A stretch of DNA of 64,000 nucleotides, taken from the NCBI GenBank assembly GCA_043800535.1, contig JAZDMV010000023.1, positions 27,264 to 91,263 on the forward strand, written 5' to 3'. Shown in pieces: positions 5,227 to 62,223 of this stretch (its first letter is position 1; each line of letters begins with the position of its first letter). The translations under genes were made by a program, and so were the position numbers. The notes below the pieces were generated by a model. That model had not been told where the DNA came from. It did no database searches and saw nothing but the letters and a program-made list of their open reading frames with translations. This DNA is from a bacterium. GTDB taxonomy: Bacteria; Patescibacteriota; Minisyncoccia; Portnoybacterales; GWB1-42-6.

Positions 5227-5344
5227 TTTTTTATTTCTTGCATCTGAAAATTTTGTAAGAAAATTTTCTTTAAAAATCGCGCATGGCGAAAAATTTATAA
5301 GAAAATCGAGACAAGCGAGGCGTGTAGAAAATTGGCGACGGAGC

Positions 5345-7641: not shown

Positions 7642-7664
7642 ATGCCCCGCACGGTGCGGGGCAT
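7642..7664 (+). terminator. Intrinsic terminator after the PMT-family gene. It is built on the recurrent CCCCGCACGGTGCGGGG palindrome.
   Basis: ATGCCCCGCAC-g-GTGCGGGGCAT followed by TTTATAATTATTT. Confidence 0.6.
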
Positions 7665-12371: not shown

Positions 12372-12657
12372 AAATATTATGTAAAAAATACTAACTGCGA
12401 ATAAATTAATCTACTCTTGCATCTGAAAATTTTGCAAGAAAATCGCGGCAAGACGAGCGTAGCGAGAAGTTTACGAAGTAATTTTTAGTGAGACAAGCTA
12501 TGATTTTATCAAAATTTTCAGCTGCAAGCAGTCTTTTGGCTACCCCGGCACCAGAACGCCTATGGCGTTCGGTGCGGGGCATGCTTTTCTACTTTACCCC
12601 GTACCGAGCTTGCTCTGGTACTGGGGCTGCCAGAAAAGTAGCTCCTACGGAAAAAAA

Positions 12658-18855: not shown

Positions 18856-18892
18856 GAATTTCTATACTCAATCATTAATCCTTTTTAGACAC

Positions 18893-18972
18893 CCTACTAA
18901 TTTACTAATCTTTTACAAATATTACCAATAATACTAATAAATCCATATTTGCAGTATTTGTAAATTAGTAGA
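18893..18972. repeat. AT-rich palindromic intergenic element, family CCTACnAATTTACTAA...TTAGTAGG (copy 3, diverged).
   Basis: Shares the ACCCTACTAATTTACTAAT...TTTACAAATATTAC...ATTTGTAAATTAGTAG architecture with the elements at 30521..30600 and 32786..32880. Confidence 0.5.
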
Positions 18973-21756: not shown

Positions 21757-22863
21757 TTATATATTATACCCCACTTTCTTCAAAAAATCTATCAGCTCCC
21801 GCCTGAATCTTTCTTCTGAAAACTTCTCCGCCCGTTTATGGATAACAAGAGGGCTATAATTGGTGAGATTCTCGCGCAGGCGGCGGACTCCGTCCGCCAA
21901 AATCTCCGGCACCGCGTCGTAAAAAAATTCACCCGTTACGCCCGGAATTATTGTTTCAAGCGCGCCACCTCTGCCAAAAGCCAGAACCGGCTTGCCCCAA
22001 CCCATTGCCTCAACGGGCGCTATGCCAAAATCATCTTCGCCCGCAAAAACGAAAGCGGTGCAATTCTTCAGGTATTTATTTTTTTCCTCCTCGTTTCTTT
22101 CGCCTAAGAATTTAATTGTCGGGCCAGCCAGCTCCTCTAATTTTTCTCTTTCCGGCCCGTCACCGATTATTAAAAGCAGCAATTTCAAACGATTAAACGC
22201 CTCAATTGCCAGGTCAATGCGTTTATAGGGTGTCAGCTGCGATACAATCAGAAAATAATTTTCATCTTTTGCTGTCCTGAATTGTCCAAACGTCGGCAGA
22301 CAAACAGGCGGGTAAATAATAAAAGCGTTTCGGCGATAATACTTTTGTATTTTTTCTCTTGTCGCTCTGGAATTAGCGATAAAATAATCGGGCCGCCGCG
22401 ATGAGGATTTATCCCATATCCTCAAATAATGTACTACTAAAGTTGCCAAGGCCCGGCGAACTGGCCCAAAGTCTTGCTCGCGGATATATTGCTTGTTCCA
22501 GTCCCACAGAAACCTTGAAGGCGCGTGACAGTAGCAAATGTGCGTGGTGCCGGGCCGGGTGATTATGGATTTGGCGAAAGCCGAAGACGAAGAAATAACC
22601 AGATCGAATTCCCGCAGATCAAATGTTTCGGCCGCTACTGGTAAAAATGGCAGAAGGTGTTTCTGCCGGCGCCTGATAAATTTGGGCAGCTTTTGCAAAA
22701 AAGATGGCCGTATGTCTGCCCCTGCCAAAACTCCGCCCATTTTTTCTTCGTCGTATAAAAGAGTGTAAATCGGAGCTTCAGGAAAAATTTCATGCAATTT
22801 TAAAAGAACCCTCTCCGCCCCTCCTAATCTAATTAAATAATCGTGGACTAAAGCGACCTTCAT
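21757..22863 (-). CDS. Glycosyltransferase family 4 (GT-B).
   Basis: The C-terminal EX7E-like region is FVFAGEDDFGIAPVEAMGWGKPVLA. The start was chosen at the ATG that abuts the upstream stop, whereas the ORF track extends to 22908. Confidence 0.7.
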   Translation of the reverse strand: MKVALVHDYLIRLGGAERVLLKLHEIFPEAPIYTLLYDEEKMGGVLAGADIRPSFLQKLPKFIRRRQKHLLPFLPVAAETFDLREFDLVISSSSAFAKSIITRPGTTHICYCHAPSRFLWDWNKQYIREQDFGPVRRALATLVVHYLRIWDKSSSRRPDYFIANSRATREKIQKYYRRNAFIIYPPVCLPTFGQFRTAKDENYFLIVSQLTPYKRIDLAIEAFNRLKLLLLIIGDGPEREKLEELAGPTIKFLGERNEEEKNKYLKNCTAFVFAGEDDFGIAPVEAMGWGKPVLAFGRGGALETIIPGVTGEFFYDAVPEILADGVRRLRENLTNYSPLVIHKRAEKFSEERFRRELIDFLKKVGYNI

Positions 22864-23993
22864 TTTTCCGTCAAAAATTGCAGCGTCTCCTTCGCGCATT
22901 TTTTCCAACTAAACCGTTTTAAATTTTCGTATCCCAATTCTATCAGCTTATCACGCGCCTGCTTGTCGTCAATCAATTTGTAAATAGTTTCCGCGATCTC
23001 TTCAGAGTTTTTTGGACTAACAAGCAATGCCGAATTGTTTACCACTTCCGGCATGCTTGATATATTCGAAGTGACTACGGGAATACCAGCGGCCTGCGCC
23101 TCCAAAATCGGCATGCCAAAACCCTCATAGAGCGAAGGGAAAAGAAATACGTCTGCACCGGACAACAATTTTTGCTTTTCATCTTCGCTGACATAGCCAA
23201 GTTCGTGGACTTGAAACTTGAAACTTGAGACTTGAGACCTTATTTTATCATAGCCGAATCCCGGCGAGCCGACCAAAACCAATTCATGCGGGATTTTGTA
23301 CTTCTCTTTTAATGTATTATACGCCTCAAGAATCCCCAAAACATTCTTTTTCAATTCAATTCGTCCTATATACAACAAATATGGTCTGTCTACATCTGTC
23401 ATCCCGGGCTTGACCCGGGATCCAGGCTGTGGACTCTGACTTTTGTCAGATTTGCAAAATGACACTCCGTGATGTACTACGGTAATTTTTGATTCATCTG
23501 CCTCATATAGCTTCATCAAATCATTTTTCGTACTTTGGGACACCGCAATAATTTTTCTTGCATGCTTGACCGCATATTTTGTGCTCCATCGCAAATATTG
23601 CCGGTGACGCCACGGATACATTTCGGGAAAATACTCGTATTCCAGGCCATGAATCGTAACGACTGAATTTTTCGGATGCACCAACGGCAAAACATGCACT
23701 GGAATAAAAAGCGCATCGGGCTTATTAAAAACCATCTCCGACGCCAATCTCAACTGCGTCCACATCGGCAAAGGCCATTTTAATTTTTTGACCTGAAAAT
23801 TCTCGGGCAATTCAAAGTCAAATCTGGGTAAACCCGCCTCCGCTCTTCGAGCTACGGCGGGCAAGTATAACAAAAATCGATGCTCCCCAGCTTCTGGCAG
23901 CATCGTTAAATGTTTTATCAACTGGTATACATACTCTTCAACGCCCGTTCGCGGCTGTTTTATCGCCGCCGCAGCGTTAATTCCGATAGTCAT
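22860..23993 (-). CDS. Glycosyltransferase family 4 (GT-B) with an in-frame palindromic insertion in the interdomain linker.
   Basis: FLFPSLYEGFGMPILEAQAAGIPVV. The 66-bp GC-rich element at 23398..23463 lies inside the ORF. Confidence 0.7.
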   Translation of the reverse strand: MTIGINAAAAIKQPRTGVEEYVYQLIKHLTMLPEAGEHRFLLYLPAVARRAEAGLPRFDFELPENFQVKKLKWPLPMWTQLRLASEMVFNKPDALFIPVHVLPLVHPKNSVVTIHGLEYEYFPEMYPWRHRQYLRWSTKYAVKHARKIIAVSQSTKNDLMKLYEADESKITVVHHGVSFCKSDKSQSPQPGSRVKPGMTDVDRPYLLYIGRIELKKNVLGILEAYNTLKEKYKIPHELVLVGSPGFGYDKIRSQVSSFKFQVHELGYVSEDEKQKLLSGADVFLFPSLYEGFGMPILEAQAAGIPVVTSNISSMPEVVNNSALLVSPKNSEEIAETIYKLIDDKQARDKLIELGYENLKRFSWKKCAKETLQFLTEK

Positions 23994-30168: not shown

Positions 30169-30516
30169 TTATACTAGCTCAATTATCACCACCGCCGCGG
30201 CATCAGTTGTCCTTTGCCCCAGTTTTATGATTCTTGTATATCCACCAGCTCTTTCTTTGTATTTTGGCGCGACCTCTTTAATTAATTTTGCCACCGCCGG
30301 CTTTGGCAGAAACTTTTCTGCATTTCTTGCGCCTTCAATACCTCCTTTTTTTGCTTTCGTAATCAAACGTTCAACAAACCCGCGCATTTCTTTGGCCCGC
30401 GCTTCGGTCGTTTTTATTTTTCCGTTCATTATTAAATTCGCCGCCAGGCCTTTTAAGAATGCCTTGCGCTTGTCTCTCGTCCTGCCAAATTTTCTGCCTT
30501 TGTTTGCGTGTCTCAC
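30169..30516 (-). CDS. rplQ: 50S ribosomal protein L17 (GTG start).
   Basis: MRHANKGRKFGRTRDKRKA... The first codon is GTG. Confidence 0.85.
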   Translation of the reverse strand: MRHANKGRKFGRTRDKRKAFLKGLAANLIMNGKIKTTEARAKEMRGFVERLITKAKKGGIEGARNAEKFLPKPAVAKLIKEVAPKYKERAGGYTRIIKLGQRTTDAAAVVIIELV

Positions 30517-30520
30517 GTCA

Positions 30521-30600
30521 CCCTACGAATTTACTAATTTCTACAAATATTACGGATATAATATTTGTAAGATTGGTAATGATTCGTAATTTAGTAGGGT
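30521..30600. repeat. AT-rich palindromic intergenic element, family CCCTACGAATTTACTAA...TTAGTAGGG (copy 1).
   Basis: About 85% identical to 32786..32880. It has an internal perfect inverted repeat TACAAATATTA / TAATATTTGTA. Confidence 0.6.
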
Positions 30601-31541
30601 TATTTTAATTCAAAACCGTGCTTCTTCAACGCTTTTTTGATCTCTTTTATACCCTTATCTCCCATGCCCTCGATCTCTTTCAAAGACCCTTCGCTTTTTT
30701 TTGCCAAGCCGCCGAGCGTCTTTATTCCTGTCTCGACCAACGCATTAACTGTCCTGGTTGAAAGCTTTAATTCTTCAATTTTTATTTTAGTTGCTTCATC
30801 GCCCGCTTTTTCATCTTTGACCACGGCTTCTTTTTTTTCTTCTTCCTCCTCGCCTTTTTCCATCTCTAAAAATAGACCGAACTGGTCAACTAAAATTTTC
30901 GCTGCCTGAATAAACGCTCCTTCAGGCGAAATGCTGCCATCTGTTTCTATCTCGATTTTCAGCCGGTTAAAATCCGTTTGCTCGCCCACGCGCATATTCT
31001 CAACCTGAAAATTTGCTTTTGTCACCGGCGTGAAAAATGAGTCAATCGCAATCATTCCTATTTCCAGCTTCTCTTTTCTCCGTTTCTCCACCGGCACAAA
31101 TCCAAGCCCTTTTTCAACTTTTATTTCTATTTCCAGTTCCGCTTTTTTGTCGGATAGGCTTACGATGTGCGCATCTTTGTTTATAACTTCTATTTCAGAA
31201 CTTATTTTAATGTCGCCTGCTTTTACATCTTTCTGCCCCTTAGCCGAAAGAAAAACAGTTATCGGTTCTTCGCCATAATATCTGAATCTTATTTTCTTTA
31301 AATTTAAAATAATCTCAATCGCATCCTCGATCACGCCTGGAATTGTGGAAAATTCGTGCTGGACACCCTTGATTTTAAAACCGGTGGCCGCTGCACCAAC
31401 TAGAGAAGACAAAAGAACACGACGCAACGCATTACCCAACGTTATCCCATAACCAGGGTAACATCCCTCAATTTCAAAAACGGCGCGGTTTCCCTGCTTC
31501 TCAATGACCTTTGGTTTTTGAGGGAGAGGTATGTTTTGCAT
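30600..31541 (-). CDS. rpoA: DNA-directed RNA polymerase subunit alpha.
   Basis: N-terminal domain sequence YGITLGNALRRVLLSS plus a C-terminal alphaCTD. Confidence 0.9.
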   Translation of the reverse strand: MQNIPLPQKPKVIEKQGNRAVFEIEGCYPGYGITLGNALRRVLLSSLVGAAATGFKIKGVQHEFSTIPGVIEDAIEIILNLKKIRFRYYGEEPITVFLSAKGQKDVKAGDIKISSEIEVINKDAHIVSLSDKKAELEIEIKVEKGLGFVPVEKRRKEKLEIGMIAIDSFFTPVTKANFQVENMRVGEQTDFNRLKIEIETDGSISPEGAFIQAAKILVDQFGLFLEMEKGEEEEEKKEAVVKDEKAGDEATKIKIEELKLSTRTVNALVETGIKTLGGLAKKSEGSLKEIEGMGDKGIKEIKKALKKHGFELK

Positions 31542-32785: not shown

Positions 32786-32880
32786 CCTACGAATTCACTA
32801 ATTTTTACATATATTACCTGCCGGCAGACAAACGAATATAATATTTGTAAAATTGGTAATGATTCGTAATTTAGTAGGGT
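32786..32880. repeat. AT-rich palindromic intergenic element, family CCTACGAATTCACTAA...TTAGTAGGG (copy 2).
   Basis: The 3' 45 nt (ATATAATATTTGTAAAATTGGTAATGATTCGTAATTTAGTAGGGT) are nearly identical to the copy at 30521..30600. Confidence 0.6.
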
Positions 32881-32881
32881 T

Positions 32882-37195: not shown

Positions 37196-39028
37196 TTATT
37201 CCAAAACGGCCTTGATGCGCCTAACCCCAGCCGAACTTGCCTCTTCCTTAACTATTTTGAATCTTCCTAATGCACTAGTCCGCTCAACGTGAGGACCGCC
37301 GCAAATTTCGCGACTGAAATTTCCGATACTATAAACCTTGACCCTCTCCCCGTATTTTGATTCAAACACGCCCATCGCGCCTTTGGCTTTTGCTTCGTCC
37401 AGCCCCATTTCTTTCATTGCCACCGGTAAGTCAGCCATAATTTGTTCATTGACAATCTCTTCAACTTTTTTAATTTCTTCTGGCGTCACTTTTTGTGGAT
37501 GCGAAAAGTCAAAACGCAATCTTTCGGCCGTGATATTTGAACCTTTCTGCGTGACATGATTGCCAAAGACTTGCCGCAACGCCTCAAGCATAAGGTGCGC
37601 GGTTGTATGATATTTGACCACTTGCTCGGAATGGTCCGCCAGCCCGCCTTTGAATTTCTGCTCTGCTCCGGCGCGAGAAAGTTCCTGATGCCTGATCAGC
37701 TCTAAATTGAATTCCTCCCTTAACTTCTTATCATTCGACCAATATCCATGATGCTCAAAGTATTCTTTCGTCATTTCGTAAGGGAAACCGTACGTTTGGT
37801 AAAAATCAAAAATTAATTTACCTGTTAAATCACCCTCTTTGATTTTCTCAATAAATTTTAGAGCCTTGTCTAGAGTAACAACAAACTTTTCTTCTTCCCT
37901 TACGAGCCGCTCTTCAATGAACGCACGATTATTATGCAACTCTGGATAAACGTTTCGGTACATTTCTATAACAACATCCGCGACCTTAAATGTAAAAATC
38001 TCACTAATGCCAAGCTGTTTGCCGTATCGCACAGCGCGGCGGATAAGACGTCGAAGCACATAGCCGCGTTCAACGTTTGACGGCTCAAGCCCTTCGGCCA
38101 AAATAAACGTCGCCGCTTTTATATGATCCGCTACAATGCGCACGGCGCGTGTTATTTCCAGCGTTTCGCCGTGTTTTTTCCCCGAAAGCTCCTCAGTCTT
38201 TTCAAAGATCGGATAAAATAATTCATTATCAAAAGTATCTGTTTTGCCGTTTAGAACAGAAATTGTCCTTTCGAGCCCCATGCCTGTGTCCACGTTCTGC
38301 TGTGACAATTTTTCATAAGTTCCGCCTTCGGTCTTATTGAATTCCATAAATACGTCGTTCCAAACTTCCATGATCCTGCCCGCATCCGCTTCTTCGCCAA
38401 AAGTTTTTTGAAGTGCGCCCAAATCCGGCGAAACGTCGTAAAACATTTCCGTGTCCGGCCCGCAGGGCCCGGTTTGGCCAGCCGGCCCCCACCAGTTATC
38501 TTTTGCGGGCAGGGGAAAAATCCGAAAATTTTCATTGCCGGCGATCGTTGTGCCAAACGCACAGACCTCGGCATTAATGCCCGCTTTGGCGAACTGCGTT
38601 TTCCAGGCATCAATTGATTCCTGGTCAATCGGCGAATTTTCGTCACCCATAAAAACACTTATGTATAACCTTTGCGGTTCAAGCCCCAGCCATTTTTTGT
38701 CAGTTAAAAATTCCCAGCTCCACTCAATCGCCTCTTTTTTAAAATAATCACCGAGCGACCAATTGCCCAACATCTCAAAAAAAGTTAAATGACGGTTGTC
38801 GCCAACGTCGTCAATATCGGTTGTGCGGATGCACTTTTGCGCGTCAGCCAGCCGCTTGCCGGCCGGATGGCTCTGTCCCAAAAGATACGGCACGAGCGGA
38901 TGCATTCCGGCAGTCGTAAAAAGTACGGTTGGGTCGTGTTCGGGAATCAAAGGAGCCGAGGGAATTACTGCATGCCCCTTTTCTTTCATAAAATCCAGGA
39001 ATTTTTTACGTAGTTCGTTTGCGGACAT
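37196..39028 (-). CDS. alaS: Alanyl-tRNA synthetase, short form. The catalytic, tRNA-recognition and editing domains are present, but the C-terminal C-Ala domain is absent.
   Basis: N-terminus FTTAGMHP...NWSLGDYFK, and editing-site sequence HTTAHLMLEALRQV...GGPHVERTS. At 610 aa it is shorter than the ~870 aa typical of bacteria. Confidence 0.8.
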   Translation of the reverse strand: MSANELRKKFLDFMKEKGHAVIPSAPLIPEHDPTVLFTTAGMHPLVPYLLGQSHPAGKRLADAQKCIRTTDIDDVGDNRHLTFFEMLGNWSLGDYFKKEAIEWSWEFLTDKKWLGLEPQRLYISVFMGDENSPIDQESIDAWKTQFAKAGINAEVCAFGTTIAGNENFRIFPLPAKDNWWGPAGQTGPCGPDTEMFYDVSPDLGALQKTFGEEADAGRIMEVWNDVFMEFNKTEGGTYEKLSQQNVDTGMGLERTISVLNGKTDTFDNELFYPIFEKTEELSGKKHGETLEITRAVRIVADHIKAATFILAEGLEPSNVERGYVLRRLIRRAVRYGKQLGISEIFTFKVADVVIEMYRNVYPELHNNRAFIEERLVREEEKFVVTLDKALKFIEKIKEGDLTGKLIFDFYQTYGFPYEMTKEYFEHHGYWSNDKKLREEFNLELIRHQELSRAGAEQKFKGGLADHSEQVVKYHTTAHLMLEALRQVFGNHVTQKGSNITAERLRFDFSHPQKVTPEEIKKVEEIVNEQIMADLPVAMKEMGLDEAKAKGAMGVFESKYGERVKVYSIGNFSREICGGPHVERTSALGRFKIVKEEASSAGVRRIKAVLE

Positions 39029-40449
39029 ACAAAAATAGACAGAAAATTTTTACTTTATTAATAAATCTTAAAACCAAATCTCGCCCGCCATGGCTTTAGC
39101 GGCGGCGGGGCGGAGTTCGTTTGCCGTCATGCCTGTAATTTATCACAAAATCGCAATTTCGACAACCACGGCATCACATAATGGCGTCTCGCGCCGCAAA
39201 CTAGACAACCCTATGCCAAAAGTCAAAGGTTGTCTTGTGGATGCGCCATCTTTACAACAAAACCGCCATATGTTATATATTAATTGTACCTTTCAAATAC
39301 TCATTTCTTAGGCTATTTTATTCCGATATTCTATTAGGACACTCTATTTTTCCTATTTCACAGGAAAGGAGGTGTACATGAGACATTCCGAGCGTTTCTT
39401 TTCACATTATCTGGCCTTTTTCGACTCCAGAGCAGGTCCTACGATAGTGCCTACATTCCGCAAGAATGAAAGGGGGTGATAAAAATATGCGGGGCCGTGT
39501 TATCGGTCCTGAATGTTCATTTTTTACTTCGCCTTTTTGGAGGCATGATGCGTAATAGATTCCTCTGACAATTGAATGTATTTTCTTGCCGACTTCTTCT
39601 GAAGCCGGGGCCAAAATGAGCGACTAGCGTCGCACAGGCCGGTCCGACAAGCTCGGACACGAAAAACGGCCAAAAAGAAAAGAACGGGAAAAGAGGGGTG
39701 CAAGGACGTATAGCAAGGCGTAACAGCAAGAAACACACAAGCAAAGGCCATCAAGGTCATCAGGCGGAGCGGCCTTGAGCCAACAGACCGCCTCCGGACA
39801 GTGGGCATGTTAAAATCCGGGATTTTAGGACCGAGGTCTGGCTGTGCACGTGCACGCGCCAAAGAAATGCTTCGGTCGCGCAGAAGAAAGCGCTGCCAGA
39901 CGCCTGCTGCCGATTTCGAGCGAAGCGCAGAGACATCCGGCCCAGTGCCTGTTCTCTCAAAGGCTTTGCCGTCGTCATGCGCTCTCATTTTGTTCCCTCG
40001 TCTCATACTACAGTTCTTGCCCCCTCAATTCCCAACAAAAAAGACCTTCATCGTAAGGTCTTTTCTTTTACCCCCACACCAAGTTTTGGTGTGGGGGTTT
40101 ACAAAAAATTTTCCTGCCTGTGGATAATATTCTTTACAAAAACCCGTCAAAATGATATAAAGGAAATAGGTAATAGTTCTCTAACAAGAAAGGGAGAGGC
40201 GGGGCGCGAATACCAATAAATCTTCATTGCAACACTGAACTTATTTTAATACTCCCTCCTCACCACGGGGGCCACCTCCTCCCCCATCACCCATATCCGG
40301 CACCTCCTTTCTAGCCGCCTCGCCTCTTCCCTTTCTTTCTATATAAAAGCTCCCACCATCGGGAGCTTTTTCTTTTTTATTTAGACACCAAAACAAGCCA
40401 CATTCTGACAGAAATACCCGCGCTCTGGAGCGCGGGTATTTCTGTCACG
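39029..40449. other. Roughly 1.4 kb apparently non-coding, GC-enriched region with multiple hairpins and terminators and two tiny SD-preceded ORFs.
   Basis: No ORF with a plausible protein in any frame. Plus-strand terminator-like hairpins lie at 40042..40060, 40071..40097 and 40348..40380. Mini-ORFs at 39378 (26 aa) and 39476 (21 aa) each follow an AAGGAGG/AAGGGGG box. Confidence 0.5.
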
Positions 40450-41802
40450 TTACTGAATTACTCCTCCACCCAATAGTTCACCTTTTTTGCTATAGAACAC
40501 CGCGCTCTGTCCCGGCGTCACCGCCCGCTGGGGCTTGCCGAAAATTACACGCACAGTGTCATTGCGAGCCCCGACGTGAAATCGGGGCGTGGCAATCCTG
40601 TAAATAACAGCCGGACTAGCTTCGCTCTTATATCTTATTTTTATCAAAACTTCCTGCGGCAATTTTGCCTGCCCTCCGTAGCCTTGCCTGCCCGCAGTAG
40701 CTTTAGCGAAGGAGGGGCGGAGGCGGGGCGCTTGCCTGCTTGTCCAATTTATATTGCCCGCCGCCAGTTCTTTGCTATACAGATCTTTTTCATCGTTGCT
40801 GACATATAAAATATTTTTGCGCGTGTCTTTTTTAACCACCCACCACGGCCCCTGGTTCAATGGAATATTTTTACGCTGCCCGATGGTATAAAACGCTAGA
40901 CCCTGATGTTCACCCAAAATTTTACCATCTTTCAATTTGTCATTCCCGCGAAAGCGGGAATCCAGACTGGATACCGGATCAAGTCCGGCATGACACGAAT
41001 TATAATCTACTATTTTTCCTAGCTTCATTTTTATATATTTTTTCAAAAAGCTTTCAATATCGCGCGCCACAAAACAAAGATCAAAGCTCTCGCCCCGCCT
41101 GAAAGACAGTCTCCATTTTTTTGCTAATTTATACACTTCCTCTTTCGTATAGTCGGCCAAAGGAAATAATACGCGACTCAATTGCCTCTGTGTCAACGCA
41201 TACAAAAAATATGACTGATCCTTATCTTTATCCTTGGCCTTAAAAATTGTATACGTGTCATTGCGAGGAGCCCCGCACCGTGCGGGGCGACACGGCAATC
41301 CCAAAATGATATCGCCAACGGCTGTTTGCCTCGGGATTGCTTCGCCCCGACTTACATCGGGGCTCGCAATGACGCTACTTTGTATTTTCGCATAATGCCC
41401 GGTGGCAATATAATCAGCCCCCATGCCGAGCGCTTTTTTGAATAAAAGCCCAAACTTAATTTTTTTATTGCACACAACGCACGGATTTGGCGTTCGCCCG
41501 GCGTCGCTCTCGCGCAAAAAATGATCAACTACTTCTTTTTTAAATTCTTTCCCCAGGCGCAGGATATAAAAAGGGATGTCTAGTTTTGAAGCCACGTCTC
41601 TAGCCGCCTGCTCTGCACCCGCGCTACAGCAAGTATTTGTAGCCGCAAAGCGTGCATTCGGCTCTGCCCAGAAACGCATAAAAACGCCAACGACATCATA
41701 TCCTTGCTTTTTTAATAACGCCGCTGCCACAGAAGAATCAACCCCACCAGACATTGCAACTATTACTTTTCCCTTTGATTTGCGCATATTCTCTTCTATC
41801 AT
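40450..41802 (-). CDS. mnmA: tRNA-specific 2-thiouridylase MnmA carrying four in-frame palindromic-element insertions.
   Basis: VIVAMSGGVDSSVAA PP-loop...GADYIATGHYA...KDQSYFLY...AVTPGQSAVFY. It is about 83 aa longer than E. coli MnmA. The ORF-track start at 41970 is probably too far upstream, and the ATG at 41802 (MIEENMRKSKGKV) follows a terminator. Confidence 0.75.
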   Translation of the reverse strand: MIEENMRKSKGKVIVAMSGGVDSSVAAALLKKQGYDVVGVFMRFWAEPNARFAATNTCCSAGAEQAARDVASKLDIPFYILRLGKEFKKEVVDHFLRESDAGRTPNPCVVCNKKIKFGLLFKKALGMGADYIATGHYAKIQSSVIASPDVSRGEAIPRQTAVGDIILGLPCRPARCGAPRNDTYTIFKAKDKDKDQSYFLYALTQRQLSRVLFPLADYTKEEVYKLAKKWRLSFRRGESFDLCFVARDIESFLKKYIKMKLGKIVDYNSCHAGLDPVSSLDSRFRGNDKLKDGKILGEHQGLAFYTIGQRKNIPLNQGPWWVVKKDTRKNILYVSNDEKDLYSKELAAGNINWTSRQAPRLRPSFAKATAGRQGYGGQAKLPQEVLIKIRYKSEASPAVIYRIATPRFHVGARNDTVRVIFGKPQRAVTPGQSAVFYSKKGELLGGGVIQ

Positions 41803-41843
41803 TTTATTTTTTAGAATAACATCATTTTTGCCAAAAAGAAAAG

Positions 41844-41870
41844 CCCCGGATGAACATTGTTCATCCGGGG
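41844..41870 (-). terminator. Intrinsic terminator after the MYG1-like gene.
   Basis: Perfect 13-bp inverted repeat CCCCGGATGAACA-t-TGTTCATCCGGGG, followed on the minus strand by CTTTTCTTTTTGG. Confidence 0.6.
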
Positions 41871-41884
41871 CCACAAAAAGGGTA

Positions 41885-42979
41885 CTAAGCGGCTTTCTTA
41901 TGATAAAGATTGAACCGCTTATCCCTGCACTTTCTGAGCCCCCAGACATACTTTTCGCACCACCGCCCATTGCACTTTACCTCCTTGCATGGATCAACTA
42001 AGGGTGCACAAGCCAAAGCAATTGCCCCAGCCACTTCCATAAAAGAGAGGGCTGTTGGTTCCTTATCGGGCGCCGAGAAGCTCCCATTAAGAAGCTGACT
42101 CTTGTCCTTTTTGGAATAATACCAAAAATGGCATTTATCGCAATCCTCGGCCACCTCCATCTCCTGCCAGTCTGGCAGAATAATCTTACGTTTTACCAGC
42201 TCCTGCATCCGTACAATCCTTACCACATCAATAAAATTAATTTTCCGCTGAAAATCTGGCGTGGTGAAGATTGCCGTATTGCCAGTGGTGCGCCGCTGAA
42301 TTATAATATCAACCATGTCGCCAAATCTCCAACGGATCCATTTGTTCATCTTACGGCTATCTGATTCAACAACCGCGATTCCAACCGGACCTTTGATAAT
42401 CCGGCCTTTTTCACGAAATTCGTCTTCGCATTTAAAAAAGCGAATTTGGCCGCGCAGATGACGACGAATCCCATCCACCGCCCAATCAAACGCTGCTGGT
42501 AATTCCTTGTCACTCTCGCAATCATCCCAACCATCATTTAAAAGCGAGTGGATATCAAATGGCATACTTCGGCCTTCATCATCCACCCTTTTGCAAAATT
42601 GCAGGATCTTCTGCAGCTCTGGTTTGTGAGAAATCTGTAAAATTTCCGCCGCCAGATGCGCGCAGGAGGAAATACCTTTTCCGTGCTCGTCTAAAATTCC
42701 TCCCCCGATACCGATCGGGAGAATTTTGTCCTTTAATAAGATCTCGTCACCGCTCTTGCCTTTTGCATCCTCTGGCACGCGGCCTTCCGTCCAAAATTCC
42801 ATCCTTGCCTTTTCAACGCCAGGGAAGATTCCTCTGCCCCACGTCACACATTCTACGTATGCCAGAACCTCATCAAAATGCGGCATATTGTGAGTTGCAA
42901 TTTTCTTGACTGGCCACGGGCCAACACCTCCTAACCGCTTCTGCCACCATTTCAACTCTGTGCTCGCCATTGTCGCCAT
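41885..42979 (-). CDS. MYG1/UPF0160-family metal-dependent hydrolase with a Cys-rich C-terminal tail.
   Basis: IATHNMPHFDEVLAYV resembles the MYG1 N-terminal HxxxHxDE motif. The C-terminus is CDKCHFW...CAPLVDPCKEVKCNGRWCEKY. Confidence 0.5.
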   Translation of the reverse strand: MATMASTELKWWQKRLGGVGPWPVKKIATHNMPHFDEVLAYVECVTWGRGIFPGVEKARMEFWTEGRVPEDAKGKSGDEILLKDKILPIGIGGGILDEHGKGISSCAHLAAEILQISHKPELQKILQFCKRVDDEGRSMPFDIHSLLNDGWDDCESDKELPAAFDWAVDGIRRHLRGQIRFFKCEDEFREKGRIIKGPVGIAVVESDSRKMNKWIRWRFGDMVDIIIQRRTTGNTAIFTTPDFQRKINFIDVVRIVRMQELVKRKIILPDWQEMEVAEDCDKCHFWYYSKKDKSQLLNGSFSAPDKEPTALSFMEVAGAIALACAPLVDPCKEVKCNGRWCEKYVWGLRKCRDKRFNLYHKKAA

Positions 42980-51215: not shown

Positions 51216-51244
51216 GCGGCGCCCCGCACGGTGCGGGGCGCCGC
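51216..51244. repeat. GC-rich palindrome GCGGCGCCCCGCAC-g-GTGCGGGGCGCCGC.
   Basis: The CCCCGCACGGTGCGGGG core recurs at 7645..7661 and, with the central GG replaced by CC, inside the mnmA insertion (41271..41287). Confidence 0.6.
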
Positions 51245-53298: not shown

Positions 53299-53694
53299 CT
53301 ATTCCAGCCCAAACGCTATCAAACCGTATTTTTTGATTTTTTCACGGTAATTCGGAAAGCTATGATAAATTTTTTCCAGTTCTTCTTTCGTTTTTAACCT
53401 CGGATCAATGTCTTTAACCTTATATCTTTTCAGCATTGCAGCTATGGATCTGAAAGTTTGCACCCGCTTAACTTTTTTCTCAAAATTTTTCTTCCCGCAG
53501 ACCAAAACCAGCGTGTCTCCGGCTTTAATGTCCCTGTATTTTTCCGTCCCCGCCCGCGTTTCAATTTTTTTCCGGCCATCGCGGATCGCCTCAAAAATAT
53601 CTTTGTTGACTGCACGGAATTTTAATATCGCAATTTTATTTGCCATAGCGTTTCTTATATTTATTTCAGCGTCCGCAGGAATTACATCAGTCAA
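53299..53694 (-). CDS. ASCH (PUA-like) domain protein.
   Basis: 131 aa beta-barrel pattern ...DIFEAIRDGRKKIETRAG...GDTLVLVCGKK... Confidence 0.45.
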   Translation of the reverse strand: MTDVIPADAEINIRNAMANKIAILKFRAVNKDIFEAIRDGRKKIETRAGTEKYRDIKAGDTLVLVCGKKNFEKKVKRVQTFRSIAAMLKRYKVKDIDPRLKTKEELEKIYHSFPNYREKIKKYGLIAFGLE

Positions 53695-54217: not shown

Positions 54218-54252
54218 GACATTTTTTGAATTTATTTCTGCGTCCGCAGGAA

Positions 54253-54672
54253 TTATTTGTTCTTCAAGGCATCTTTTACCTGATTTATGTGATGCTCGAA
54301 ATGTGGTTCATCTCCTTCGTCAAATACCCAACTCATATGCGGCCTCTGCCTAATTTTATTTTCGCCGAATTTTTGGATATTATCTTCCAGTATTACCTGC
54401 CATTTTTCCAATTCAGATATAAGTGCCACTGGAGAATAGTTTTCGAACTCACGATAAATTCTGTCATTGAATTTATCGTAATTGTCCGTCGACATAAACC
54501 ATGGTTCCTTTCCTGTTTCAAAAACCTTTTCCAACTCATTAGCACACTCTCTTTCCCATCCGACTAAATGAGATAAAACATCTTTTACCTGCCATTTTTT
54601 CGTTACAGAAACTTTCCAATCTGATTCTTTAAGGGTTTTAAAAAAGGTTATTGTGTCCATGCTATTTTCCAT
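54253..54672 (-). CDS. Hypothetical DinB/YfiT-like protein.
   Basis: Helical bundle with HLVGWE...H pattern. The start was chosen at MENSMD (54672), which abuts the secA stop. Confidence 0.35.
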
Positions 54673-57391
54673 GGCACTTCTTATATTTCTTTCCACTTCC
54701 GCACCAGCAAGGGTCGTTGCGGCCCAGCTTAGCTGGGCTTGAGCCCCGCTGAGCGGGGCGGCCAATGTTTTTGTTACCTGAGGCAGAAGCAGATGGGTCG
54801 GTGCCACGATTTTCGCGCGCTTGCGCCAAAGGCAATTCTTGTCGCGGAGCGTCTTTTGCCAGCACGACTTTATAGATTGATTTTACAATATTTGACTCAA
54901 TCGCCGCCAGCAGATCCCGAAATAATCTGTGGCCTTCGTTTTTGTATTCAACCAGCGGGTCTTTCTGGCCATAAGCTCTTAATCTGACGCTGTCGCGCAG
55001 ATGCTCCATATTATCCAAGTGATCCATCCAGAAAATATCGATCGTCCGCAGGGTTAAAAACTTTTCAATTTCGCGCATGCTTTGCGGCCCGACTTCTTTT
55101 TCTTTCAGTTCATAGGCATTTCTGGCGGCTTCCAGCAAATAATTTATTATCTCATCCCGCTCTTTTAATTCCCGAATTTTTTGCTGGGCGTTAATTGGCA
55201 AAGGAAATATGGAATTTGCCGCTTCATAAATTTCTTTCAGATTCCATTCGCTCGCGTCTCCGGCCGTATTAAATTCCACCAGCCCCCGAACTTCTTTTCC
55301 TATCCATTCGCTGACCTGTTCGCGCAGATCAGCCCGTTTGTCATCGCGAGGAGCCGAGTCATCGAGGTGACGCGGCGATCCCGTGTTATGATTTTCTGCG
55401 GGATTGCTTCGCTCGCCCCCTCCAAGCGGGGTCTCGCTCTCAATGACACGACTTTTGCTTTCCAATATTTCTTTTCTCCATCTATAGATCCTCTCTCTCT
55501 GCTTATTCATCACGTCATCGTAATCAAGGACGTGTTTCCTGACATCAAAATTATATCCCTCGATCTTGGCCTGCGCGCCTTCAATCGCTTTTGATATCAT
55601 TCCGTTTTCTATTGCTTCGTCTTCCGGCATTTTCAAAACTTCCATCATCCGCTTAATTCTGTCCGAGCCAAAAATACGCATTAGATCGTCCTCCAACGAA
55701 ACAAAAAATTGTGAAGAACCCGGGTCGCCTTGACGTCCCGCTCTGCCGCGCAACTGGTTATCAATTCTCCGCGCCTCATGGCGCTCCGTGCCCAAAATAT
55801 GTAGGCCACCTGCCTCCACAACGCCTTCGCCAAGTTTAATATCAACGCCGCGGCCCGCCATATTGGTTGCCACTGTCACCGCGCCTTTTTGCCCTGCCTG
55901 CGCGATGATCTGCGCTTCCTGTTCGTGGTTTTTAGCATTCAAAAGCTGATGCGGAATGCCTTCTTTTTTAAGATAAGCGGATAAAAGTTCGTTTTTTTCT
56001 ATGGAAACAGTGCCCACAAGCACTGGCTGGCCAATTTTGTGTTTCTCTTTTATTTCCCGAACCACGGCGATAAATTTGCCGTTTTCCGTGCGATAGATCC
56101 TGTCACGCAGATCCTGACGCACCATGGGCTTGTTTGTCGGCGCAACCACCACCTCAAGCTTATAAACTTTGAAGAATTCCTCCGCGTTTGTTGCCGCGGT
56201 TCCCGTCATGCCGGCCAATTTATCATACATACGAAAATAATTCTGGAACGTAATTGTGGCCAATGTGCGCGACTCCTGCTGAACTTTAACGCCTTCTTTT
56301 GCCTCGATCGCCTGATGAAGGCCTTCTGAATACCGGCGGCCAAACATCAAACGGCCCGTAAAATCGTCCACAATGATAGCTTCACCATCTTTCACCACAT
56401 AATCCTTATCAAGTTTGAAAAGCACTTCCGCCCGCAATGCCTGTTCTAAATGATGAACATATCTTATGCCGCCTTCATTATAAATATCCATGCCCAGAAT
56501 TTTTTCAACTTTCGCAATGCCTTCCTCGCTTAAGCTAACCGTCCGCATTTTTTCATCAATTGTGTAATCTTCTTCTGCTTTTAATTTGGGCACGATCCTG
56601 GAAAAAGTTTCATATAGTTTTCCGGAATCAGCATCCGGCGCTGAAATAATAAGCGGCGTCCGCGCCTCGTCGATCAAAATTGAATCCACCTCGTCCACTA
56701 TCGCGTAGTGATGGCCTCGCTGAGCCATTTGCGACAGATCCTGCACCATGTTGTCCCGCAGATAATCAAATCCAAATTCGTTATTTGTGCCGTAAGTAAT
56801 ATCTGCCTGATAAGCAAGCGGGCGCGGCACTTCTTTTAAATTTTGCATTTCAACTGTGACTTCGTTTCTGTCCGGGCCGGAATGCGGTTCAAAAAGATAT
56901 GCTTTATCATGCACGACACAGCCGACCGAAACACCGAGTGCCTGATAAATCGGCCCCATCCAGTTGGTGTCACGTTTGGAAAGATAGTCGTTGACAGTGA
57001 CAACGTGCACGCCTTTGCCTTCCAGAGAGTTTAAATAAATTGCCAGGGTTGAGGCCAAAGTTTTGCCTTCGCCTGTTTTCATTTCCGCGATACGCCCCTG
57101 ATGTAAGACAGTCCCACCAAGAAGCTGCACATCAAAATGCCGCTGACCAAGCGTTCGTTTTGAAGCCTCGCGCACCGCGGCAAATGCCTCGGGCAGAAGC
57201 TCGTCCAGCGCCTCACCTCCGCCAACTGGCGGATTCAGGCGCTTACGAAATTCTTCAGTTTTTCCCTTAAGCTGCGGATCAGAAAGCGCCTCAAATTCTT
57301 TTTCCAACCCGTTGATCTTTTCAACCAACGGCATAAGTCTTGAGGCCTGCCGCTCATCCGCACTGCCGAAAATTTTAGATAGAATAGACAT
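54662..57391 (-). CDS. secA: Preprotein translocase ATPase SecA. It carries an in-frame 36-codon palindromic-element insertion and a C-terminal zinc finger.
   Basis: 909 aa. DEAD-like motor, and the C-terminal [15 protein letters not shown]. The segment [38 protein letters not shown] is encoded by 55340..55447. Confidence 0.9.
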
Positions 57392-60085: not shown

Positions 60086-60168
60086 CTACGGATTACGAAT
60101 TTATTACGGATATACGGATTTACATTATGCATTTTATCTGTATATCTGTACTCATCCGTATTCTGTAG
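60086..60168. repeat. AT-rich palindromic intergenic element, family CTACGGATTAC...GTATTCTGTAG (copy 1).
   Basis: It shares its 5' 11 nt and 3' ~40 nt (TTTTATCTGTATATCTGTA..CATCYGTATTCTGTAG) with 62144..62223. Confidence 0.6.
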
Positions 60169-62143: not shown

Positions 62144-62223
62144 CTACGGATTACAGAATTGTACTTACATACAGAATAAATTTATTTTTATCTGTATATC
62201 TGTAATTCATCTGTATTCTGTAG
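62144..62223. repeat. AT-rich palindromic intergenic element, family CTACGGATTAC...GTATTCTGTAG (copy 2).
   Basis: See 60086..60168. It lies between the murB stop and the hpf start. Confidence 0.6.

Follow-up and report, generated by a model that had tools for sequence, protein, structure and literature searches.

A 64,000-nucleotide (nt) stretch of contig JAZDMV010000023.1 (assembly GCA_043800535.1), which we call the window, comes from a metagenome-assembled genome (MAG) of the Patescibacteria and carries a secA gene that contains a 108-nt palindromic segment. The segment is an insertion at a loop between two SecA domains, spans a whole number of codons, and belongs to a repeat family whose copies also occur in many other phyla; in other SecAs the same loop has been filled repeatedly. 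We refer to this family as F1 and to a second palindromic family as F2, both names having been given in this analysis. We consider it likely that the secA segment is a non-autonomous, GC-rich F1 palindromic repeat that was inserted in frame and has been tolerated.

The host gene (positions 54662 to 57391, minus strand) encodes a 909-residue protein in which all SecA Pfam domains were found, five in number (SecA_DEAD, PP_bind, P-loop_SecA, SecA_SW, and SEC-C). Its relatives are named as SecAs of Parcubacteria, Portnoybacteria, and Patescibacteria, and the window record is itself a MAG SecA. The full-length F1 copy occupies positions 55340 to 55447 on the minus strand, exactly 36 codons encoding residues 649 to 684, and its plus-strand sequence is GTCATCGCGAGGAGCCGAGTCATCGAGGTGACGCGGCGATCCCGTGTTATGATTTTCTGCGGGATTGCTTCGCTCGCCCCCTCCAAGCGGGGTCTCGCTCTCAATGAC, with termini GTCATCGCGAG and CTCTCAATGAC. 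On the coding strand, the terminal repeat at the 5' end, GTCATTGAGAG (55437 to 55447), encodes V-I-E-S, and that at the 3' end, CTCGCGATGAC (55340 to 55350), encodes P-R-D-D. An inverted-repeat scan reported both, with terminal arms of 12 nt (one base longer than the 11-nt termini) that are 83% complementary and inner arms of 9 nt, at 55375 to 55383 and 55399 to 55407, that are 89% complementary. These inner arms form a central stem, GCGATCCCG and CGGGATTGC, around a 15-nt loop (55375 to 55407), which is the conserved F1 core GCAATCCC...GGGATTGC. The copy as a whole reads GTCATTGCGAG, hairpin, GAAGCAATCCC, loop, GGGATTGCTTCG, hairpin, CTCGCAATGAC, and each of its termini is within one mismatch of the F1 consensus. 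Three of the six reading frames are open, and the one in use is the most hydrophilic, giving a peptide rich in G, S, P, D, E, N, and R.

Membership in F1 was assessed with R1, a covariance model of the family built from 52 aligned complete copies from other genomes, with no window sequence used. R1 matched the secA copy at exactly 55340 to 55447 (model positions 1 to 82 of 82, 41 bits, E = 5.6e-9) and a copy in mnmA at exactly 41257 to 41373 (50.8 bits, E = 9e-12), with no further match in the window even when filters were turned off. Because the model matches exactly at these two places and nowhere else in the window, the two copies are assigned to one family and their boundaries are confirmed. 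The 15-mer GTCATYGCGAGGAGC was found at the secA and mnmA elements only (approximately 0.15 matches expected, although 1 of 100 shuffles also gave two), and global alignment of the two elements gave 79 to 81 matches, with a z score of approximately 8 against shuffles. We conclude from these sequence comparisons that the elements are homologous and are members of one repeat family. An initial annotation, made by reading the DNA letters alone, had described a 108-bp, 36-codon palindromic element in frame in secA and had proposed its homology to the mnmA element; its coordinates were exact, and both proposals are borne out.

An explanation that requires no mobile repeat is that the segment is a lineage-specific SecA loop, or a palindrome made locally by replication template switching, that merely resembles the mnmA sequence. 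Small hairpins can arise by template-switch mutation, and the secA copy, with z scores of -1.5 and -2.3, does not fold clearly better than shuffled sequence; it has mismatches in the terminal repeat and weak side hairpins and is a partly decayed palindrome. Such a local origin is nevertheless hard to reconcile with an end-to-end match, at the E value given above, to a model derived from copies in unrelated phyla, with the presence of F1 in the window mnmA, other genes of Parcubacteria, viral contigs, and plasmids, or with orthologs that have empty sites. We regard it as highly improbable and, for the 108-nt element, effectively refuted.

F1 copies have the form YGTCATTGCGAG, variable hairpin, GAAGCAATCCC, loop, GGGATTGCTTCG, variable hairpin, CTCGCAATGACR, in which the first variable hairpin can be plain CGAAGC instead; typical copies are GC-rich and 70 to 127 nt long. 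A genome scan for the pattern GTCATTGCGAG-N(8-32)-GCAATCCC, with one genome per species, located it in at least 120 stretches from Chloroflexota, Pseudomonadota, Bacteroidota, Planctomycetota, Cyanobacteria, Patescibacteria, and one Bathyarchaeia MAG. We rejected the raw number of matches as evidence for the family: with 19 specified bases, 25 gap lengths, and approximately 1.2e12 positions, about 110 chance matches are expected. With some 100 matches attributable to chance, it is the right terminus, which the pattern did not ask for, that counts as evidence. CTCGCAATGAC, absent from the search pattern, was present with at most one mismatch within 260 nt in 95 of the 154 matches listed, and the pattern matches also carry the inner GGATTGC arm. 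Viral contigs carry F1 as well, more than 120 of them, and so do plasmids of cultured Novosphingobium, Methylocystis, Methylosinus, and Halomonas, in which it lies at unannotated positions. Copies are also present in isolate and complete genomes (e.g., Bradyrhizobium, Calothrix, and Methylosinus), and those of other phyla are mostly intergenic or at gene ends.

A flanking direct repeat is absent in 47 of 52 F1 copies, and none was seen as a target-site duplication at the flanks of the secA copy. The bases that flank F1 are a pyrimidine and a purine (T31/C16 and A30/G18 in 52 copies) and usually lengthen the palindrome by one Y/R pair. Pair counts detected no compensatory changes in the conserved F1 stems, RNAalifold recovered the terminal stem only, and an AA/TG dimorphism beside the core is uncompensated; because compensatory changes are absent, there is no evidence of selected RNA structure in F1. 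No Rfam family matched at gathering score in the whole window or in eight family loci, and at a relaxed threshold the mnmA element gave nothing but a chance-level match to DicF (E = 0.71). Searches by sequence string and by the topic of palindromic elements or MITEs (miniature transposable elements with inverted repeats) in Patescibacteria found no published description of F1, and the family seems to be undescribed.

Relatives of the window SecA (P0001) show what the gene looks like without the element. We use paired P and L handles for those discussed individually: P0004 = L001, P0002 = L002, P0008 = L003, P0034 = L204, P0005 = L205, and P0025 = L326. When 25 close SecAs are aligned, the sequence that follows YRWRKEILE and precedes LREQVSEW is hypervariable. 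The L003 ortholog has an empty site there, ..LEGRNIGEKTLHQ.., and holds eight linker residues (GRNIGEKT), where the window SecA has SKSR, 36 residues, and KRAD. The site is empty, at basal length, in 65 of 94 parsable Parcubacteria SecAs, and 29 of the 94 have inserts of 9 to 67 amino acids (aa), in agreement with the initial description of the element as an insertion.

At the same codon position, L001 carries a 117-nt homolog of the secA element (alignment z = 8.3). The two copies share derived TTGAGAG and CGCGA(T/C)GA changes, and their divergence is about that of the flanking coding DNA (63 to 67% identity). R1 no longer recognizes the L001 copy, and its palindrome is largely decayed. The initial annotation had named, as a finding that would speak against an insertion, an ortholog with the same amino acid segment and no palindromic structure. 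L001 is not such a case: since the window copy independently matches the F1 model, the L001 segment is best read as an old, decaying copy of the same element.

Other repeats occupy the same place. In L204 and L205, F2 is found there, with the form GTCATTCCCGC..GGAAATCCAG..CTGGAT..CCGGCATGAC; in L204 it is 84 nt long and has a three-way-junction fold. L002 has an unrelated hairpin-containing insert at this scaffold/wing site that may keep the right terminus (GTTCGCGATAAC). A neighbor-joining tree of shared SecA columns pairs P0001, which carries F1, with P0034, which carries F2, as sisters, and likewise P0004 (F1) with P0005 (F2); because of this incongruence the distribution of F1 and F2 does not follow descent. 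L326, from a separate subclade, has a 99-nt F1 copy in the same loop (E = 3.7e-8), with its junction three codons from that of the window copy. Three F1 copies lie within 9 kb in L326 (4654 to 4767, 5254 to 5352, and 6762 to 6842), two of them in frame in one secA, in the variable region of NBD2 and in the scaffold/wing loop, and the third in a nearby spacer; P0019, the sister of P0025, has no F1-type peptide at the site. The scaffold/wing loop is a permissive hot spot that has been filled several times independently by several repeat families. A metagenome scan for SecA relatives returned mostly SecAs of other phyla at approximately 50% identity, with no inserts at the site, and was uninformative about the hot spot.

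Insertions also recur elsewhere in SecA. An alignment of 105 sequences has recurrent insertion points at P0001 positions of approximately 58, 225, 274, 521, 645 to 685, and 858 to 883, and at the NBD2 site near 521, inserts of at least eight residues are present in 43 of the 105 SecAs. Peptide signatures such as SDLNPP...QVVDR recur at two sites of one protein (P0019, P0025), which suggests further repeat families.

The position of the insert in the SecA fold is consistent with tolerance. The window SecA matched Bacillus subtilis SecA with an E value of 2e-257, in an alignment interrupted at the insert only: it stops at query residue 647, approximately residue 622 in 1m6n numbering (625 in 1tf2) at the end of EVIDSEN, and resumes in the wing domain. 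An AlphaFold2 model based on 105 aligned sequences (mean pLDDT of 80.5) has a long scaffold helix at 597 to 644, a coil with pLDDT below 50 at 651 to 684, and the next helix at 689 to 708; the C-terminal linker (847 to 886) is also of low confidence. The alignment and the model thus place the insert between the scaffold and wing helices, where the initial annotation had expected it, and in the model the 36 residues probably form a floppy surface loop between the long helix of the helical scaffold and the helical wing domain. Among SecA domains, conservation is lowest in the wing, and mycobacterial SecA2 lacks most of it, which makes a tolerant site at this domain plausible.

An alternative hypothesis is that the element has been co-opted, such that the loop of 36 residues, or the hairpin in RNA or DNA form, now has a function (partner binding, translation speed, or mobility of the wing domain) and is kept by selection. 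The preprotein clamp involves both the wing domain and the scaffold helix, a homologous copy is present at the same codon position in a SecA of only 70 to 78% identity (L001), and about a third of the clade retains some insert in the loop. The peptides are not conserved, though, with P0001 and P0004 sharing the ends only (VIES..PRD[DE]); inserts at the site, 9 to 67 aa long, come from unrelated families, and many close relatives have none. The low pLDDT of the loop and the lack of compensatory changes in the conserved stems also argue against co-option, which we consider unlikely.

We postulate instead that the inserted F1 copy persists on three conditions: a whole number of codons (36), a stop-free frame, and, at a permissive surface position, a peptide that is hydrophilic and probably disordered. 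Most likely, secA is transcribed and translated straight through the element, which after insertion would evolve as fast-changing coding sequence while its palindrome decays. Since copies in other phyla lie for the most part between genes or at gene ends, we propose a selection filter that would purge disruptive insertions and leave as survivors the in-frame, stop-free copies in surface loops or linkers. We infer read-through because every intragenic copy examined leaves the host frame open. Besides the copies in secA, mnmA, L001, L204, L205, and L326, these include F1 copies in frame in a Parcubacteria valyl-tRNA synthetase (ValRS; L082, 569 to 660), in a UvrA (L021, 2835 to 2921), and in a multi-pass membrane protein (L080, 1969 to 2081), as well as those in SPP1-type phage portal proteins.

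Some of these loci have features of their own. L021 and L080 are labeled "uncultured Gammaproteobacteria," but given their GC contents of 0.42 to 0.43 and Patescibacteria-style inserts, the labels may be wrong. In viral contigs, open reading frames (ORFs) have in-frame F1 copies of 75 to 93 nt at similar relative positions (L291, 831 to 905; L268, 4496 to 4588; L302, 4317 to 4391; L313, 941 to 1015). Pfam identifies the L291 ORF as an SPP1 Gp6-like portal protein, the L268 ORF is clearly homologous to it, and in both contigs a partial F1 copy adjoins the full one.

Translation through the element could be avoided if it were an intervening sequence absent from the protein, whether removed from mRNA like an intron, skipped by the ribosome in programmed bypassing, or removed from the protein. 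Programmed bypassing occurs at the GC-rich "byp" elements of yeast mitochondria and in T4 gene 60. The element, and its mnmA relative especially, can form very stable hairpins (-43 to -66 kcal/mol), and paired termini would bring the flanks together. A stop-free, in-frame sequence would be needless if it were skipped, yet that is what each intragenic copy examined has, and the decayed L001 copy, having lost most of its palindrome, still keeps the frame. No Rfam intron or ribozyme family matched, 108 nt is too small for a group I or II intron and 36 aa too small for an intein, and there is neither an in-frame stop nor the matching pair of take-off and landing codons that bypassing would use. 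An intervening sequence is, in our view, very unlikely.

An assembly or binning artifact, that is, a chimeric join or a misassembled repeat in the MAG, is an explanation to which we give almost no credence. The window SecA has a single source, one contig of one MAG, but the gene is collinear with its orthologs on both sides of the insert and its frame is intact. Independent JGI, ENA, and Logan assemblies have homologous or analogous inserts at this site, and F1 copies are also found in isolate and complete genomes such as those of Bradyrhizobium, Calothrix, and Methylosinus.

How F1 is copied is a matter for speculation. Its all-hairpin architecture, stems that are conserved in sequence with no compensatory change, flanks that usually add one pyrimidine/purine pair, the lack of target-site duplications, and the lack of a linked transposase lead us to favor copying in trans by a hairpin- or single-strand-dependent mechanism, by analogy with REP/RAYT (repetitive extragenic palindromes and the RAYT protein) or IS200/IS605. 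We speculate that a classical cut-and-paste MITE mechanism would fit less well.

Several observations weigh against an F1 repeat that was simply inserted, tolerated, and translated. F1 and F2 end at the same codon, four before L-R-E-Q, in P0001, P0004, P0034, and P0005, and loop tolerance by itself does not account for this shared end codon. No allele more than 90% identical to the window SecA was present in the protein collection searched, and without such a close relative a recent insertion event is not demonstrable. An open frame says little about read-through when taken alone, as a 108-nt GC-rich stretch avoids stops in a given frame fairly often and half of the frames here are open. Neither an autonomous F1 element nor a candidate transposase was found, so the copying mechanism is conjecture: terminus pairs 0.3 to 4 kb apart in 120 loci enclose ordinary genes, with no transposases in 8-kb flanks, and recurrent terminus pairs approximately 1.2 kb apart flank ordinary genes as well.

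Among known systems, the secA element most invites comparison with the Rickettsia palindromic elements (RPEs; Ogata et al. 2000). In the accounts of PMC10969869 and PMC3184786, RPEs are approximately 105 to 150 bp long, form several families, and lie in frame in unrelated housekeeping genes of a small-genome bacterium, where the encoded peptide is judged compatible with the host fold. To the extent of those accounts, the repeats here are alike in being short palindromes (approximately 70 to 127 bp), in forming several families, in occurring in frame in housekeeping genes, and in lacking a linked transposase, and the secA element is itself an in-frame palindromic repeat at a fold-compatible position. 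The differences are that RPEs belong to Rickettsiales and F1 was found in Patescibacteria without being restricted to that lineage, since it extends to many phyla, viral contigs, and plasmids and is mostly intergenic, and that here a single codon-level site of one gene sees turnover of different families. We suggest that the secA element works like an RPE and do not claim it as one; the likeness is one of description.

Intragenic REPs of the GTAG- and CGTC-tagged superfamilies have units of 20 to 40 bp and occur inside uvrA and tRNA synthetase genes, where they encode 20 to 30 or more residues (Di Nocera et al. 2013; PMC3733652). Like F1, they are GC-rich hairpins that are mostly intergenic, near gene ends, sometimes intragenic, and free of target-site duplications, and both are often inverted dimers that fold into larger structures. 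F1 copies differ in being composite palindromes of 70 to 127 nt with GTCATTGCGAG termini (GTCAT) and no GTAG or CGTC tag. No RAYT gene was seen, although the window ORFs were not scanned for one (PF01797). Classical bacterial MITEs such as Nezha and Chunjie have flanking direct repeats and share terminal repeats with a cognate insertion sequence (IS) (PMC3184786). F1 resembles them in its terminal inverted repeats, small size, stable predicted folds, multiple copies, and lack of coding capacity of its own, but it has no direct repeats (as in 47 of the 52 copies above), and no cognate IS was found in the terminus-pair loci and their flanks. BRE, RUP, and BOX elements are further known in-frame palindromic repeats (PMC3184786).

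The secA element therefore cannot be assigned to any of the three classes: it is from another phylum than the RPEs, lacks the duplication of a classical MITE, and is larger than a tagged REP and without its tag. Fungal mitochondria contain mobile GC clusters and double-hairpin elements, some of which are bypassed by the ribosome and not translated. They share with F1 the GC-rich hairpin modules in an AT-richer genome, the tolerance in coding genes, and the two-hairpin architecture, but they are organellar and their sequences are unrelated.

A second, smaller insertion is present in the C-terminal linker of the window SecA, where the initial annotation had noticed two back-to-back GC hairpins and suggested this possibility. 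The double-hairpin insert is 39 nt, or 13 codons, at 54719 to 54757 (minus strand), and a GGCCGC direct repeat flanks it, which makes its placement ambiguous by 6 nt. The window linker reads ..AAC ATT GGC CGC / CCC GCT CAG CGG GGC TCA AGC CCA GCT AAG CTG GGC CGC / AAC GAC, and the corresponding stretch of L001 and L003, in which the site is empty, is ..ATC GGC CGA/AGG AAC GAT... In L002 the spot is occupied by another hairpin insert, of 60 nt, that is flanked by ATCGG(T/C)CGC.

Four copies of the hairpin CCCCGC-N(3-5)-GCGGGG are present in the window, where 0.02 would be expected. Two of the four are intergenic and terminator-like (7645 to 7661 and 51222 to 51238), and the other two are within coding sequence: the first (41271 to 41287) is an arm of the mnmA F1 copy and the second (54744 to 54758) is part of the secA linker insert. 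The hairpin modules seem to be interchangeable between intergenic and intragenic contexts, and local generation of the 39-nt linker insert by template switching is a real possibility. Near the SecA N terminus, another small GC hairpin, CCGCCAGTTGGCGG on the coding strand (57212 to 57235), encodes NPPVGGGE, a four-residue insertion shared with P0002 only among the 25 aligned SecAs.

The mnmA gene of the window (40450 to 41970, minus strand) has three or four palindromic or GC-rich inserts relative to solved MnmA structures. Its F1 copy (41257 to 41373, minus strand), identified by the R1 match, is 117 nt or 39 codons long, lies in frame at residues 200 to 238 (an insertion relative to those structures at query residues 199 to 238), and is better preserved than that in secA, with a perfect 11-bp terminal repeat and a three-way-junction fold (z = -7.1 and -6.6 against shuffled sequence). 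Two more inserts lie on the minus strand: a half F1 copy (GTCATTGCGAGCCCCGACGTGAAATCGGGGCGTGGCAATCC) at 40558 to 40599, which encodes ..RIATPRFHVGARND, and an in-frame F2 copy (GTCATTCCCGC..GGAATCCAG..CTGGAT..CCGGCATGAC) at 40939 to 40995, which encodes CHAGLDPVSSLDSRFRGND. A third type of insert, RLRPSFAKATAGRQGYGGQA, is present at 40666 to 40725, and the gene also has a 63-residue N-terminal extension. A degenerate F2-like element (GTCATCCCGGG..CCCGGGATCCAGG..AATGAC) lies at 23398 to 23463 (minus strand) in a GT4 glycosyltransferase gene (22860 to 23993, minus strand), where it is in frame at residues ~178 to 199, exactly in the linker between two Pfam domains.

Next to mnmA is an intergenic region of approximately 1.4 kb (39028 to 40450) with a GC content of up to 0.65, in which the ORFs on both strands are overlapping and implausible and which has no Rfam match and no tRNA; a relaxed Rfam scan of 38900 to 40600 gave terminator-like chance matches only. 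An RNA gene not yet described, a gene in decay, or accumulated repeats could account for this region. The window also contains AT-rich direct repeats of 26 to 46 nt with 92 to 98% identity (30556 to 30601 and 32836 to 32881; 18890 to 18925 and 30519 to 30553; 60132 to 60168 and 62186 to 62223; 5236 to 5264 and 12415 to 12443; 53659 to 53684 and 54230 to 54255). Most appear to lie between ORFs, judged by position against the ORF list, and a role as shared promoter or operator motifs is possible; the pair at 30505 to 30615 is also found in inverted arrangement.

A broader and more tentative idea, which we think possible though on balance doubtful, is that F1, F2, and their kin are one undescribed superfamily of double-hairpin mobile elements with YGTCATT...AATCC-loop-GGATT...AATGACR ends, spread across bacterial phyla by phages and plasmids and routinely fixed in essential genes of Patescibacteria. 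Under this idea, a single mnmA would have received four inserts and a single secA two or three, with further copies in ValRS and UvrA. If it were true, the shared end codon in secA would reflect element-for-element replacement or hairpin-targeted insertion, beyond a tolerant loop, and the elements would be a major unrecognized source of lineage-specific insertions in Patescibacteria proteins.

If the secA segment is, as we consider likely, a tolerated F1 insertion, selfish DNA within protein-coding genes, known from Rickettsia, also operates in Patescibacteria and reaches SecA, an essential translocase motor, and the responsible repeat family is common to many other phyla and viral contigs. 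What lifts the case above the routine is the combination of an essential host gene in Patescibacteria, a spread across phyla and viruses, a seemingly undescribed family, and the turnover of families at one loop. Such inserts inflate and fragment alignments of Patescibacteria proteins, and the lineage-specific loops that they leave might be taken for functional innovations. They are also markers of where SecA is permissive, namely, at the junction of the scaffold helix and wing, in the variable region of NBD2, and in the C-terminal linker. One loop refilled by different families serves as a natural experiment in the origin of new protein segments from noncoding repeats.

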